The notes beneath the pieces are model-generated. The model worked only from the letters and a program-made list of their open reading frames with translations, ran no database searches and was not told where the DNA came from. From the NCBI GenBank assembly GCA_041737355.1, contig JBGSRW010000006.1, positions 83,734-147,733 on the forward strand: DNA of 64,000 nt, written 5' to 3'. How positions within the stretch are numbered: position 1 is the first letter of the stretch; every line of letters starts with the position of its first letter. The stretch is from Patescibacteria group bacterium (GTDB lineage Bacteria > Patescibacteriota > Patescibacteriia > XYB2-FULL-38-15). A program made the translations under genes and the position numbers. Positions 17,336 through 47,789 of this stretch are shown piece after piece.

Positions 17336-17591
17336 AAATTTAAAATTATTTTCTAATACGCTCCGTGATTTCCGACCGCTCCTCCATAAAAAGAGTCGGA
17401 ACCAAAGACTGCTCGCCTTCGGCGGAAAATTAAAAAATCATTAACTTATCATAACATAATTTTATAAAAAGGCAAACCCCCAAGCCGGGGCTATTTTGAC
17501 TTAATCCTATATACATTATATATGCTTGACATTTTGGGCGGTTTTGCCAAGATAGAATATCTGGCCCGAATGGATTTGGGCGAGAAAAGGG

Positions 17592-17620
17592 GTCCCGCGG
17601 TATTGCGGGACGGAGGAGGA
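17592..17620 (+). promoter_or_regulatory. Perfect 7-bp hairpin (GTCCCGC-GGTATT-GCGGGAC) directly abutting the GGAGGAGGA ribosome-binding site of the islet gene
   Basis: The hairpin at 17592-17611 and SD at 17612-17620 sit 5 nt before the ATG at 17626; a possible translational control element. Confidence 0.35.
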
Positions 17621-17625
17621 TCAAA

Positions 17626-18303
17626 ATGGGAGACGGACAAACAAAGCCGCACCTTGTCGTGCCGGAACCGAAGAAATGGATGGCACGGGTCATGAAGCAG
17701 CTTTCCGGGGGCGAAGTAACGGGCGGATCCGTCATCGGAGTACGGGAAGCATCTTGCCTGAACGGCAGGCTCGCCTTCACTCTTCTCCGGCAGGGCGGCT
17801 CGTGCGTCGTTGTTTACGGCGACATGAGCGATCCGCTCGAGAGACTGACGAAGAGCGAACCTTTCCGCCAAGTCCTCGGCCTCCGGCTCGCGAACGGCCG
17901 GCCGCTCTACGTCGCCTGGCCGGATGATCCCAAGGACAACCGGCCCTGCGTCTTCTGGGGCAAAACCAAAGAAGGACCGCCCTGCGACGCCATTGACCAC
18001 GAGAGGCTCTCGGTGTGGGACAACGCGCTCCCGCTCTACCCCGGCTGGAGAGACGGCAAGGTTTGCATCTTCCGCGGTAGGGACTATGGCAAACCCTACG
18101 ATGATATCGTAGGCCCGATCTCCATCGTGGGTAACCGCGAACTCTACCGCGCCCGGCTCGGCAAGGAAATGCTTCTTGTCTGGAGCAAACAAGAAAGCGA
18201 GACCTACGAGCACGTTTCGCCGCCCGAGTTCGACGGCAAAGAAGTCACCGCCTGGGCGACAAGATCCGTCAGGTTCTACAAGCTGGCGATCAAGGTCGCC
18301 TAG
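17626..18303 (+). CDS. Hypothetical protein, GC-rich islet gene A
   Basis: 225 aa with the strong SD GGAGGAGGA. Codon third positions are strongly G/C-biased, unlike neighbours; no recognizable domain. The overlapping antisense ORF 17491..18405 is judged spurious. Confidence 0.6.
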   Translation: MGDGQTKPHLVVPEPKKWMARVMKQLSGGEVTGGSVIGVREASCLNGRLAFTLLRQGGSCVVVYGDMSDPLERLTKSEPFRQVLGLRLANGRPLYVAWPDDPKDNRPCVFWGKTKEGPPCDAIDHERLSVWDNALPLYPGWRDGKVCIFRGRDYGKPYDDIVGPISIVGNRELYRARLGKEMLLVWSKQESETYEHVSPPEFDGKEVTAWATRSVRFYKLAIKVA

Positions 18304-18313
18304 GAGACAAGCC

Positions 18314-18847
18314 ATGACGGACGAAAATGAGAAGATGGCTTGTCCGAACTGCGGCTCGGAAGACGTCAAATGCTTCCACCAGCCGAAAAACGGCTTCGTC
18401 ACCATCTGGGACGAGTACGTCTTGCTCTGCCCGAAGTGCCGTCACCACGAAACGCGGCAGGAGCAGGCCGGCTTTTTCTTCTTCCTGCTCTTCTGGTCCC
18501 GCGACACGGTCTGCCCTTTCTGCGGCAAACCGCCCGCGAAACATCAGAAGGGACGGCTTCTCACGGAGATGGCTTCCTTTCTCGATGAAACCGGGGACAA
18601 GGCGAAGGAACTCGATCCGGCCGCCGAGATCTGCCCGGAGTGCGGCAAGGGTGAAATCGTCTGCACTTATCTTGGCGAGAGCGGCACGCCGAGAAATTAC
18701 AACTACGTCTGGGAGCATACCTGCACCCGCTGCGGTTACAACCGCAACTTCACCGAATTCAGCGAGTGCGATGATCCCGATCACGCCGAATTCGTTGACC
18801 GGCACGGTCCCGGCAAAGACGGCGGCTGTCCCGGCCCGCACAAGTAG
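18314..18847 (+). CDS. Cys-rich multi-zinc-ribbon protein, GC-rich islet gene B
   Basis: ATG at 18314 with AGGAG 8 nt upstream, 11 nt after the gene A stop. 177 aa with CPNCGSE, CPKCRHHE, CPFCGK, CPECGKGE, CTRCGY motifs (five CxxC pairs). Confidence 0.6.
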   Translation: MTDENEKMACPNCGSEDVKCFHQPKNGFVTIWDEYVLLCPKCRHHETRQEQAGFFFFLLFWSRDTVCPFCGKPPAKHQKGRLLTEMASFLDETGDKAKELDPAAEICPECGKGEIVCTYLGESGTPRNYNYVWEHTCTRCGYNRNFTEFSECDDPDHAEFVDRHGPGKDGGCPGPHK

Positions 18848-18868: not shown

Positions 18869-18902
18869 CACCGCAAGGTCCACACTTTGCGGTTTTTTTT
18901 GT
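18869..18902 (+). terminator. Rho-independent terminator after the islet operon
   Basis: CCGCAAGGTCCACACTTTGCGG stem followed by TTTTTTTT. Confidence 0.6.
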
Positions 18903-18908
18903 TTAAAT

Positions 18909-18934
18909 ATAAAAATCCGCCATCAAAGCGGATT
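18909..18934 (-). terminator. Rho-independent terminator of the convergent minus-strand operon
   Basis: ATCCGC-catcaaa-GCGGAT hairpin with a U-run on the minus strand (plus-strand ATAAAAA). Confidence 0.5.
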
Positions 18935-18955
18935 CTATTATACTATTTTAAATTA

Positions 18956-19477
18956 TTAATCAATCGCTAAGTCAATTGCCTGCGGTTTTTCTTCGGCGGC
19001 CGGCTTTCCCGCCGAATTGCCGTTCGTGCTCCGCAGGGCCGAAGTTGTCGCCCGCGGACCGGTAACTTTTTTCGGAGTGAGCGCCGAAGTTTTTGCCGTC
19101 GTCTTTAGCGCCGCGGTTGTCGCGTTCTCCGGTTTTCCGGCCGAAGTCGCTTCGCGCTCGCGCGAGTAAAGTCCGACCATCTTTTTTTGCATCGCCTCCC
19201 TTTGTTTTCTCATGTCGGCCATCGTCAGCTTTGGTTTATCCTCGTCGGCAATTTCTTTTTCCGTGCCGCGGATAACTTCGCCGGTTGATTTATGGACAAT
19301 CCCTTCGCTCCGCAGGGCGCCGACCGCTTTCCTGAATTGGTCCTTACTCACCGACTGTTGATGCAGTAAATTCCCCATCCCGGCTTTTTGTAAAGCTTTC
19401 TCAACCTTAAAAGACGGCTTGCCCGAAGCCTGATGCAAAGCGCTTTTAAATTGTCCCGAAGTAAATCGTAAAGCCAT
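18956..19477 (-). CDS. Hypothetical protein with a low-complexity Ala/Thr/Lys-rich C-terminus
   Basis: Trimmed to ATG at 19477 (MALRFTSGQFKSALHQ...), 11 nt after the kinase-like gene stop; 173 aa; no recognizable domain. Confidence 0.45.
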   Translation of the reverse strand: MALRFTSGQFKSALHQASGKPSFKVEKALQKAGMGNLLHQQSVSKDQFRKAVGALRSEGIVHKSTGEVIRGTEKEIADEDKPKLTMADMRKQREAMQKKMVGLYSREREATSAGKPENATTAALKTTAKTSALTPKKVTGPRATTSALRSTNGNSAGKPAAEEKPQAIDLAID

Positions 19478-19487
19478 AAAAAATATT

Positions 19488-20624
19488 TTAAGCCGCTTTT
19501 TCTTTTGCTTCTTCCGGAAAAAGATAAACCCCGTTGAAGGCCGCTTCAATCTCCCGGCGCGCCTCTTTCTCGTCGTAATTATCCGGCAATTTCTGCGTGG
19601 TGATCATTTCCTCAACTCTGGCCGTAAAATGCTGCCAAATAACTTCCGCGTCTTCGCCCAAAACATTAAAGCATTCGCGGAGAGCTGTTTTGGTTTTGTT
19701 GGATTGCAAAAAATCCTGTAATTTTTTCCCTATTTCCGGAGACAGCGTCGGGTCAAAAGCCTGATCCCCGAGCTTTTCCTTGTTGAACAGTTCCAGCGGC
19801 TCGGACCGCACGGCCAAAGTCGGAAATCTGTCTTTAATTCCAAAGGTGTCGTAAGTCAAACCGCGGCCGAAACTCAAACCGTTATCAATCGCGTGAGCCT
19901 TGCCGGCTTTGTCAACCATAAAATTTCCGCCATGCCGATCCTGACTCCCAATCAGGTAATCGAACAGGGCGATTTTTTGCGCTTCTTCTTCGCTAAGCCC
20001 GGCCTCCGGCCCTCCTTCGTCGTAAGTTTTGGCGTCCGGGATCCAAGCTTGGAACGAACCAACCCCCTGCTCGCCTTTTCGGACAACCGTCGGCGGGGTC
20101 ACATCCAGCCCCAAAGCCCGGTCGGCCATAAATGCCAGCCATTCTCTTTTAAAACTGCTCTTTGGCTCAATCCCCGGCCGCGGACTCAATTCTCCCTTTT
20201 CTCCCAAAACCACTTCCCCGTCAGCCGGCTTAAAAATTCCTTTTCTTTCCCCTTTTTCACCCAGACGCAAAATATATGATGCATTAATACCTTTGTGTTC
20301 GTCGCCCAACGCTTCAATCGGTTTACACGGCGGTTCGCAAGGTTTTGCTTCTTTCAATTCTTGAAGTTTATCCAGCTCTTCGGCAACCTGTTCCGCCGTC
20401 TCCGGCCCGCCCTCCATAATTTTCGCGCCGTAAAGAGCGCTCGTCAGCTGATCCATCCTTGAGAGAAGTCTGTCTTCTTCAATTCTTTTTTCCCGCTCCT
20501 TGGTTTCAGCTTCCTGCTTCCCGATATCCGAAACTTCCGGTTTTTTCTCCGGCACTTCCTTCCCTTCCGGCATTTTCATTTCTTCTATAAAAGCTTCAGG
20601 ATAGCTTGATTCTCTGTCAGCCAT
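19488..20624 (-). CDS. PI3/PI4-kinase-like atypical protein/lipid kinase domain protein
   Basis: 378 aa. An acidic coiled-coil N-terminus, then GIFKPADGE (beta3 Lys region), catalytic loop DRHGGNFMV (PI3/4K DRHxxN) and an IDNGLSF DFG-like activation segment. Confidence 0.55.
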   Translation of the reverse strand: MADRESSYPEAFIEEMKMPEGKEVPEKKPEVSDIGKQEAETKEREKRIEEDRLLSRMDQLTSALYGAKIMEGGPETAEQVAEELDKLQELKEAKPCEPPCKPIEALGDEHKGINASYILRLGEKGERKGIFKPADGEVVLGEKGELSPRPGIEPKSSFKREWLAFMADRALGLDVTPPTVVRKGEQGVGSFQAWIPDAKTYDEGGPEAGLSEEEAQKIALFDYLIGSQDRHGGNFMVDKAGKAHAIDNGLSFGRGLTYDTFGIKDRFPTLAVRSEPLELFNKEKLGDQAFDPTLSPEIGKKLQDFLQSNKTKTALRECFNVLGEDAEVIWQHFTARVEEMITTQKLPDNYDEKEARREIEAAFNGVYLFPEEAKEKAA

Positions 20625-20629
20625 ATGAT

Positions 20630-20965
20630 TTATTCTTTATTTTTTTCGCGGGCGTAGCAATAAGGCGTCCGGAAATTCAAACGAAGAGCCTCAAAAAATT
20701 TCTGCCCGTCTTTTGGAAAAACCGTTTTGTTGTCGAGCCCGGTAATCCCCTCTTCGGAAATTTTCTTCGCCAAAATTTTCCCATCCTCCGCGGTTTCAAC
20801 TATTACCACCCCGCCCCGTAATTCGCAGCGGACCAAAACCTTGAATCCTTCTTCGTCTGAAACAAAACGCCCGATCTCAATTGCCTTGGGTTCGTTTTCC
20901 TTCCCTTCTTCCGGCATTTCCGCGCCGCCGTGGGGAAATTCTATGATTTTTCCTGATTCTCCCAT
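20630..20965 (-). CDS. Hypothetical small acidic protein, first gene of the kinase-like operon
   Basis: 111 aa; stop 5 nt before the kinase-like start; no recognizable domain. Confidence 0.45.
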   Translation of the reverse strand: MGESGKIIEFPHGGAEMPEEGKENEPKAIEIGRFVSDEEGFKVLVRCELRGGVVIVETAEDGKILAKKISEEGITGLDNKTVFPKDGQKFFEALRLNFRTPYCYAREKNKE

Positions 20966-21146
20966 ATATTTTTATATATTAAACAGGCCTCCTTCCCCCA
21001 ATTTTACCTCCTCTTGCCAAAAATTTCAAGATGGGGTAAGATTGATTTTGCCCTTCGTCTTCGAAAGAAAATGGAGGGATATCTTAAAAAAGAAAGGAGT
21101 CTGGAATTGCCGCCTAAAACGGAGGCCATTCCGCTAATTATTAACT

Positions 21147-30418: not shown

Positions 30419-30494
30419 GGCCCTATCGTCTAGTCCGGTCTAGGACACCACGCTTTCAATGTGGTAACCCGGGTTCGAATCCCGGTGGGGCTAC
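30419..30494 (+). tRNA. tRNA-Glu (anticodon TTC), CCA encoded
   Basis: Aligns position-by-position with canonical bacterial tRNA-Glu: GGCCCTA TC GTCTAG ... ACCAC GCTTTCAAT GTGGT AAC CCGGGTTCGAATCCCGG TGGGGCT A CCA. Confidence 0.85.
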
Positions 30495-30557
30495 CAAAAT
30501 AGTGCATTACTTCTTTAAAAGAGATATAATAGAGTAATAACTTGTAATCTCTTAATA

Positions 30558-47633: not shown

Positions 47634-47708
47634 GGCCCCGTAGTTTAATGGATAGAACACTAGCCTTCTAAGCTGGATATCGAGGTTCGATTCCTCGCGG
47701 GGTCACCA
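47634..47708 (+). tRNA. tRNA-Arg (anticodon TCT), CCA encoded
   Basis: GGCCCCG TA GTTTAATGGATAGAAC A CTAGC CTTCTAA GCTGG ... GAGGTTCGATTCCTC GCGGGGTC A CCA. Confidence 0.85.
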
Positions 47709-47709
47709 T

Positions 47710-47781
47710 GGTGGCTATAGTTTAACGGTAGAACAGTGGGTTGTGGTCCCACTAGCCTGGGTTCAACTCCCAGTAGCCACC
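47710..47781 (+). tRNA. tRNA-His (anticodon GTG) with encoded G-1 and C73 discriminator
   Basis: G(-1)GTGGCTA ... anticodon stem GTGGG/CCCAC with loop TTGTGGT ... T-arm GGGTTCAACTCCC ... TAGCCAC C. It starts 2 nt after the CCA of tRNA-Arg; no CCA encoded. Confidence 0.85.
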
Positions 47782-47789
47782 CCTCAAAG

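Follow-up and report, generated by a model that had tools for sequence, protein, structure and literature searches.

A type II PI 4-kinase-like kinase and a strictly linked small partner form a two-gene module in a Patescibacteria clade

Introduction

What does a kinase of the PI3/PI4-kinase superfamily do in a bacterium of a very-small-genome lineage, and which of its neighbors belong to it? The question is raised by three adjacent minus-strand genes, here called open reading frame A (ORF-A), the kinase gene and ORF-C, in contig JBGSRW010000006.1 (assembly GCA_041737355.1) of a Patescibacteria group bacterium. The window analyzed is the 64,000-nucleotide stretch from position 83,734 to 147,733 of that contig, and coordinates are given within it. 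An original prediction, made from sequence alone, had read the trio as one operon of a eukaryote-like kinase and two partner proteins beside a foreign GC-rich islet, and had proposed a host-interaction effector or a HipA-like toxin. Type II phosphatidylinositol (PI) 4-kinases (PI4KII) are usually treated as a eukaryotic invention. We find that the kinase resembles the core of these enzymes, that the co-inherited module is ORF-A plus the kinase, and that ORF-C is an older resident gene.

Results

The kinase resembles the core of type II PI 4-kinases

The three genes and the parts of the kinase are the following.

20630-20965, minus strand: ORF-A, 111 aa, an acidic disordered N-terminal tail followed by an alpha/beta domain
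19488-20624, minus strand: kinase gene, 378 aa, an atypical kinase of the PI3/PI4-kinase superfamily, closest to type II PI 4-kinase
18956-19477, minus strand: ORF-C, 173 aa counted from its ATG
19590-20312, minus strand: kinase core, residues 105-345, catalytic residues invariant (alignment A1)
20229-20231, 19938-19940, 19923-19925 and 19884-19886, minus strand: kinase catalytic residues K132, D229, N234 and D247, respectively
20349-20528, minus strand: helical hairpin of the kinase, residues 33-92, flanking the N-lobe
20325-20339, minus strand: C-E-P-P-C motif of the kinase, residues 96-100, between hairpin and N-lobe

All three ORFs were confirmed, and the central one matches Pfam PF00454 (PI3_PI4_kinase) with 35.1 bits against a gathering score of 27.1 (E 1.8e-8), a match that spans only profile positions 135-186 of 241, the catalytic loop and the DFG-like motif. 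The motifs singled out by the original prediction are all present: IFKPADGE, which contains K132, DRHGGN (residues 229-234) and IDNGLSF (residues 246-252). The four catalytic residues K132, D229, N234 and D247 are invariant in 10 homologs of 38-80% identity. Because of this invariance and a ratio of non-synonymous to synonymous substitution (dN/dS) of 0.10-0.12, the kinase is predicted to be active. Its isoelectric point (pI) is 4.85 and its net charge −22, and no signal peptide, transmembrane or hydrophobic segment was found in its sequence; the protein thus reads as catalytically intact and soluble.

Comparison with PI4KIIα extends the likeness beyond the Pfam match. The PI4KIIα sequence used was checked against PDB 4hnd_A and is identical except for the engineered SSPSS. 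In hhalign, the family profile aligned to it with a probability of 91.7% (E 7.8e-7, 35% identity over 65 columns), and a gap of 20 residues fell exactly at the PI4KIIα insertion I3. The pairwise alignment matches K132 with K152, D229 with D308, N234 with N313, D247 with D346 and VGSFQ with VGSFQ. The sole NCBIfam match is the SCO1664 family TIGR03843 (E 3.8e-14, residues 112-253), at 52.7 bits against a cut-off of 172.4, so the kinase falls outside that family as defined.

An AlphaFold2 model built on ten homologs reached a mean predicted local distance difference test (pLDDT) score of 69 and a predicted template modeling (pTM) score of 0.76, with the C-lobe and the N-terminal hairpin confident and the G-loop region poor. 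Where the original prediction had placed an acidic coiled-coil, the acidic part is borne out as a disordered tail (residues 1-32) and the coiled-coil is replaced by the predicted hairpin, whose helices 33-71 and 74-92 are confident (pLDDT 81-95) and which is the likely equivalent of the PI4KIIα hairpin α2/α3. Where PI4KIIα carries I2 and I3 the model has tight beta-turns. Between hairpin and N-lobe, C96, P98, P99 and C100 are present in 9/10 homologs, with low pLDDT there; this C-E-P-P-C motif may serve as a redox or metal site. Though reminiscent of CCPCC, the palmitoylation motif of PI4KIIα, it stands at another position. On these sequence grounds the kinase is a PF00454 superfamily member that resembles the type II PI 4-kinase core and is without PI4KII-specific features.

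ORF-A is the strictly linked partner of the kinase

In an AlphaFold2 model of pLDDT 67, residues 1-25 of ORF-A are an acidic disordered tail and residues 26-108 an alpha/beta domain. It has 18 homologs and gave no Pfam, PDB-sequence or Foldseek match. In profile searches of the ORFs of the fetched loci (numbered with L below), ORF-A lies directly upstream of the kinase in 11/11 distinct close-family loci, and in the fetched loci it was never seen without the kinase. The two genes are 5-6 nt apart in the window, L001, L004 and L013/L014 and 26-149 nt apart elsewhere. Public gene calls start ORF-A later, at a length of 95 aa; we rejected this start, as the conserved N-termini of the homologs fit the 111-aa form.

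The linkage may reach further than the close family. L017, from a marine Patescibacteria metagenome-assembled genome (MAG), holds a distant kinase (34% identity over the domain) and no ORF-C; its kinase is followed by a 111-aa ORF resembling ORF-A (hhalign E 2.7e-4, probability 42%; hmmsearch E 0.007). This likeness is weak but specific, and suggests, at the level of sequence comparison, that the link between kinase and partner outlives a change of gene order. The co-inherited module is therefore ORF-A plus the kinase, with ORF-A as its strictly linked partner.

The trio is transcribed from one conserved promoter-like site

Four signals bound the transcription unit.

21001-21029, minus strand: promoter-like site TTGAAA, 17 nt, TAAAAT (sigma-70-like), upstream of ORF-A
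21014-21042, plus strand: promoter-like site of the divergent S1 gene, back-to-back with the ORF-A site
18912-18936, minus strand: intrinsic-terminator-like hairpin with a 10-bp stem and a T-rich tail, 3' of ORF-C, closing the operon
18870-18893, plus strand: terminator of the convergent Zn-ribbon gene, facing the hairpin of the operon

The ORF-A site matched 10/12 positions in a consensus scan. Across the window, L004, L022 and the kinase-less L006, its hexamers and spacer do not vary (alignment A6), and the core is also kept in L001, L002, L019, L008 and L009 (alignment A8). No convincing terminator was found between the genes of the trio. The gap between ORF-A and the kinase gene is 5 nt (20625-20629), as originally given; that between the kinase gene and ORF-C is 10 nt (19478-19487) rather than 11. 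These sequence signals support the trio as one transcription unit with a single conserved promoter-like site and a single terminator, in agreement with the original claim of co-transcription. The interval first delimited begins at 18909 because it takes in the hairpin and T-run terminator (18936-18912). GC content and GC content at third codon positions (GC3) of the trio genes equal those of the flanking housekeeping genes. A TTG-extended, 197-aa ORF-C in public gene calls, which would overlap the kinase gene, was rejected, as its homologs begin with MALRF or MSLRF.

Between ORF-A and the S1 gene lie 181 bp (20966-21146) of unusually high conservation, in which long blocks do not vary from genome to genome. 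The 5' leader of S1 has a conserved polypyrimidine/Shine-Dalgarno block and a GC-rich hairpin (about 21095-21133); the hairpin is a possible autoregulatory structure of S1.

The module is inherited vertically and has probably been lost at least once

The gene order of the window is gyrA, a 208-aa gene, a metallo-beta-lactamase (MBL)-fold hydrolase gene, a GC-rich gene pair, the trio, a divergent S1-domain (rpsA-like) gene and ftsH. The same order recurs in loci from metagenomes and MAGs labeled Patescibacteria, about 11 distinct genomes in all; the trio is thus conserved together in related genomes, as the original prediction had expected, and the kinase-fold match is significant. One record, L016 (OZ246416.1, an 886,192-bp chromosome), has the S1 gene beside ORF-A, the kinase and ORF-C, followed at a distance by the MBL-fold hydrolase and the 208-aa gene, and its S1 is 78% identical to that of the window. 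The record is labeled 'uncultured Gammaproteobacteria bacterium'; the size of the genome and its synteny suggest a mislabeled Patescibacteria genome.

The region between the S1 gene and the first gene of the operon, promoter hexamers included, is kept with or without the kinase (alignments A6 and A8), and the same promoter therefore drives either ORF-A-kinase-ORF-C or ORF-C directly. In neighbor-joining trees of S1 and of the MBL-fold protein, L006, which has no kinase, groups as sister to the window within the clade of kinase carriers. Right after the promoter L006 retains GAAGCGGATTAAAATATTTTTT, matching the last codons of the window's kinase gene, its stop and the 10-nt spacer. We infer that L006 probably lost ORF-A and the kinase by a clean deletion of which this sequence is the scar. 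Co-option of a pre-existing untranslated region as the end of the kinase gene would be the less parsimonious reading. L008 and L009 lie outside the clade in the S1 tree, where ancestral absence and loss both fit. The module has thus been inherited vertically within one Patescibacteria clade with at least one probable loss, and it is dispensable, since it is cleanly missing from the closest relative of the window.

The trio is under purifying selection, as judged from dN/dS against two relatives: 0.12-0.16 for ORF-A, the range given above for the kinase, 0.07 for ORF-C and 0.05 for S1, all estimated with dS near saturation. ORF-A and the kinase diverge much faster than their neighbors, at 37-44% identity where S1 has 77-80%. 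There is no paralog of ORF-A, the kinase or ORF-C elsewhere in the window. An origin of the module from a mobile element or phage was rejected: the kinases on viral contigs are all distant (35-38% identity over 54-98 residues), and neither ORF-A nor ORF-C accompanies them. Such distant superfamily kinases are carried by the phage-like or IMG/VR contigs L003, L020 and L021; L003, a phage-like contig, has only a 557-aa kinase.

ORF-C is an older resident gene

ORF-C lies directly downstream of the kinase in 10/10 loci whose contig extends that far. It also stands alone beside S1, behind the same promoter core, in three kinase-less genomes (L006/L007, L008 and L009/L010). ORF-C is thus an older resident gene that is co-transcribed with the module and does not depend on it. 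Because it persists alone behind the same promoter in these three relatives, the trio is not one functional unit, and the original picture of a kinase with two partner proteins gives way to a module of two genes followed by an independent third.

ORF-C is basic (pI 10, charge +13). A charged helix is followed by a Thr/Ser/Ala-rich tail, the low-complexity tail described originally, which is real and yet holds an invariant TTSAL and, at the C-terminus, a likewise invariant IDLxID. The N-domain is possibly a winged helix: weak CvfB_WH matches were obtained for 5/11 members, the best at E 0.0065. The TTSAL/IDLxID region looks like a short linear docking motif.

Some further observations concern ORF-C. 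Its C-terminal part (18956-19090; alignment A5) belongs to a lineage-specific basic protein that is always divergent from the S1 gene. The ORF-C of L006 (P0020; 6001-6250 of L006) has an N-domain sharply diverged from that of the window and a C-terminal half that is about 90% identical; overall, ORF-C is 58% identical between the two and S1 92%. The other two kinase-less genomes retain an ordinary ORF-C N-domain. One JGI homolog is annotated as 'AAA+ superfamily predicted ATPase', for which its sequence gives no support. The interval that separates ORF-C from the MBL-hydrolase gene varies among loci (6507-9171 in L008, with equivalents in L006, L009, L001 and L002). In L008 it holds a lipid cassette (cytidine diphosphate-alcohol phosphatidyltransferase, a diacylglycerol-kinase-like protein and PAP2), in L002 an NfeD/S49 protease, and in the remaining loci unrelated small ORFs.

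The kinase belongs to a very large superfamily

Among 5.8 billion proteins, a word-seeded search returned only 13 relatives of the kinase, of which ten are full length. When 1.84 billion cluster representatives were searched exhaustively with the profile, 5167 clusters (50% identity) were returned at E<=1e-3 and 1620 at E<=1e-10; the full architecture of the kinase is found in only about six. Ten short relatives (250-324 aa) were tested and all match only TIGR03843, each below its cut-off. Other relatives, of 400-700 aa, have uncharacterized N-terminal regions, and a few are giants of 1300-3200 aa in which as many as four PF00454 domains are combined with HipA_2, HipA_C or ABC1-like matches; these giants, too, come without ORF-A or ORF-C. 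Among 150 distant relatives no ORF-A-like or ORF-C-like domain was fused to the kinase. By these sequence matches the kinase domain is one branch of a very large, unstudied superfamily spread across genome and metagenome data, and it is not a recent eukaryotic import; the term 'eukaryote-like' misleads, given the number of clusters and the sub-threshold matches of the short members to a bacterial family. Our literature search found nothing on this kinase family or on PF00454-type kinases in Patescibacteria, and nothing on SCO1664 beyond its linkage to mshC.

The GC-rich pair and the rest of the window

The GC-rich pair (17626-18847, plus strand) encodes a 225-aa protein without a family and a protein of about 179 aa with several zinc ribbons (about 18308-18847). 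L004, L006, L011/15 and L013 have the pair at the equivalent site, and in L001 and L016 it is partly conserved there. Its GC3 is 0.76-0.77 in the window and 0.61-0.79 in relatives, against 0.33-0.54 for neighboring genes. Being conserved and GC-rich in the relatives as well, the pair is an inherited anomaly and not a recent transfer, contrary to its first description as a foreign islet. Long antisense ORFs (17491-18405 and 18290-18841, minus strand) are by-products of the high GC content. The window also has five tRNA genes (2084-2261, 30419-30496, 47634-47783), for Lys-CTT, Arg-TCG, Glu-TTC, Arg-TCT and His-GTG, and beyond these an Rfam scan of the window gave no family at its gathering score.

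Discussion

A proposed cytoplasmic kinase with a partner protein

Tentatively, and with a confidence somewhat short of even, we favor a vertically inherited, dispensable, cytoplasmic atypical kinase, probably a Ser/Thr protein kinase, that works with ORF-A as its obligate small partner. ORF-A and the kinase form a two-gene accessory module standing between a conserved promoter and the older resident ORF-C, so that all three are transcribed together, divergently from the S1 gene. The kinase is an 'insertion-less' PI4KII homolog that retains the Lys for ATP binding, the DRxxxN catalytic loop and, in IDNG, the metal-binding Asp. Its proposed role, that of a cytoplasmic atypical Ser/Thr protein kinase, is drawn by analogy with CtkA, Fam20C, actin-fragmin kinase and HipA/HipT, which share its structural cluster and likewise lack the insertions. 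ORF-A, made by coupled translation, would be a stoichiometric partner, either a regulator or inhibitor or a substrate adaptor, and would bind the kinase physically. The basic ORF-C, with its invariant TTSAL, is a candidate substrate.

A protein kinase is proposed because the membrane-anchoring palmitoylation motif and the RK-rich elements of PI4KIIα are lacking, and the palmitoylation insertion also lines the PI pocket. Structurally, PI4KIIα has its closest analogs among protein kinases, and these lack insertions I1-I3, which only PI4KIIα possesses; I1 and the activation loop together line its PI pocket (PMC3974213). The kinase falls in the structural neighborhood described there for PI4KIIα. 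By analogy, we infer a protein rather than a lipid or small-molecule substrate.

Several points weigh against this proposal. The nearest structural neighbor is a lipid kinase, which keeps phosphorylation of a lipid or inositol compound among the possible activities. The N-lobe of the model, with the G-loop and the loop equivalent to I1, has pLDDT <50 at residues 97-127 and 137-151. TTSAL is equally conserved in kinase-less genomes and so is not kinase-specific, and the same applies to IDLxID. No Ser or Thr of ORF-A is invariant, neither structural nor sequence comparison gave it a significant relative, and no fusion of an ORF-A-like domain to a kinase occurs among the 150 distant relatives. 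To our knowledge, no bacterial member of the superfamily has a known substrate.

Alternatives

The locus might instead encode a HipST-like toxin-antitoxin (TA) system, in which the kinase would be a growth-arresting toxin phosphorylating an essential translation factor and ORF-A a HipS-like antitoxin blocking the active site; HipS is the antitoxin of HipT (PMC10627512). ORF-C might then be a DNA-binding third component. A small acidic protein whose gene immediately precedes that of the kinase, 5 nt away, the presence or absence of the module between close relatives, the faster evolution of ORF-A and the kinase, and the HipA_C or HipA_2 matches of some distant family members are all consistent with such a system. 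These hints are weak, and we consider it unlikely: Foldseek finds no HipS, neither the kinase nor ORF-A has a Couple_hipA (PF13657) or HipA_C match in Pfam, hhalign of the ORF-A profile against an unverified HipA N-terminal sequence gave nothing, and ORF-A has no Trp equivalent to Trp65 of HipS. The module occupies a single fixed chromosomal site and follows the S1 and MBL phylogeny, rather than being patchy, mobile and multi-copy as typical TA loci are; ORF-C occurs without it; and PADLOC gives just a weak match to the catalytic loop. The same assessment applies to the HipA-like toxin of the original prediction.

PI4KIIα is the top match in both structure and sequence, and its VGSFQ and IDNGL are identical to those of the kinase; this argues for a genuine lipid or inositol-compound kinase, a minimal prokaryotic type II PI 4-kinase acting on phosphatidylinositol, host-scavenged or host-located, or on a soluble inositol metabolite. 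The best-matching curated bacterial model points to inositol as well: SCO1664/TIGR03843 is invariably linked in actinobacteria to genes for mycothiol, an inositol-containing thiol (PMC4255298). Against this, I2 and I3 are absent and I1 is shortened, without the amphipathic helix and CCPCC. The kinase has a net charge of −22 and no hydrophobic or basic surface segment to bind an anionic membrane, no lipid-metabolism gene is linked in any kinase-bearing locus, and the TIGR03843 score is far below the cut-off. PI4KII-type lipid-kinase activity is doubtful on this sequence evidence because the membrane and lipid elements of PI4KII are missing, and we hold this alternative, too, to be improbable. 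Less probable still is a new two-protein kinase switch of ORF-A and the kinase on a type-II-PI4K-like core, either a split-kinase TA system analogous to HipS-HipT or a minimal PI 4-kinase or inositol-compound kinase; in the latter form, ORF-A could supply the substrate or membrane-targeting function of the PI4KII insertions.

Patescibacteria are generally regarded as episymbiotic, and this lineage is what would favor a secreted effector delivered into a host cell. Everything else about the locus makes that reading very improbable. The highly acidic kinase has no signal peptide, transmembrane or hydrophobic segment, and its operon contains no secretion genes. The locus is a conserved housekeeping one with native codon composition, GC3 included, and the kinase is made with an intracellular partner and co-transcribed with ORF-C, a basic and probably nucleic-acid-binding protein. 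The closest relative has probably lost it with no other change to the locus. The host-interaction effector of the original prediction is not borne out by these features, and the cytoplasmic protein kinase with ORF-A as its partner remains our preferred reading.

Significance

The superfamily itself was already known; what is new here is a minimal PI4KII-like kinase with a new obligate partner. The locus provides a compact, insertion-free bacterial homolog with the PI4KII signature motifs intact, from a lineage of very small genomes, and it bears on what the PI4KII core did before it gained membrane- and lipid-binding insertions. If the minimal prokaryotic PI 4-kinase form were true, it would bear directly on a prokaryotic origin of type II PI 4-kinases. 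With 378 and 111 aa, both predicted soluble, the kinase and ORF-A are a tractable entry to the function of thousands of uncharacterized bacterial PF00454/SCO1664-like kinases. For annotation, the lesson is that an apparent operon can be a two-gene cassette in front of an unrelated resident gene, and that a GC-rich islet need not be foreign DNA.

Comparison with known systems

Sequence likeness to CtkA, Fam20C/Golgi casein kinase and actin-fragmin kinase is confined to the catalytic loop and the Mg-binding region. In Pfam, membership of Fam20C is excluded (13.6 bits against 26.8), and no actin-fragmin kinase family, a profile that the original prediction had suggested checking, appeared for the kinase at E<=1. 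Fam20 and Helicobacter pylori CtkA are secreted, in contrast to the kinase, which lacks a secretion signal. Among the PADLOC defense models only PDC-M03A was matched, by kinase residues 213-257 (22 bits, E 2e-5) and not over the full length; ORF-A and ORF-C matched none.

HipBST and HipBA differ in several respects. The kinase has no HipA_C (PF07804) or HipA_2 domain in Pfam, there is no HipB-type helix-turn-helix gene upstream, and the locus is fixed and vertically inherited. The catalytic loop is of the PI3/PI4-kinase type, DRHGGN, unlike HipA, in which it is DGHAKN.

Relative to the SCO1664 family, the kinase adds the N-terminal acidic tail, the helical hairpin and the CxPPC motif, and its loci have no mshC or DUF3090 neighbors and have the ORF-A partner instead. 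The SCO1664 family and the wider bacterial PF00454-like kinases are uncharacterized as a whole, as is the kinase.

PI4KII (PDB 4pla, 4hnd) is the closest known system. The two have in common the motifs FKP (with the Lys), VGSFQ, DY[LI]I..DR...N and AIDNGL[SA]F, and in both a helical hairpin precedes the N-lobe sheet, a close correspondence in fold. The RK-rich insertion I2 (about 37-39 residues) and I3 (about 20) of PI4KIIα are missing from the kinase, and the loop equivalent to I1 has 22 residues against 34 by hand alignment. This loop has no Cys motif and no predicted helix, in place of the amphipathic helix and CCPCC of I1. The Pro-rich N-terminus of PI4KII is also absent. PI4KII is a membrane-integral enzyme of eukaryotes, whereas the kinase described here is acidic, predicted to be soluble, bacterial, and encoded with a small partner.

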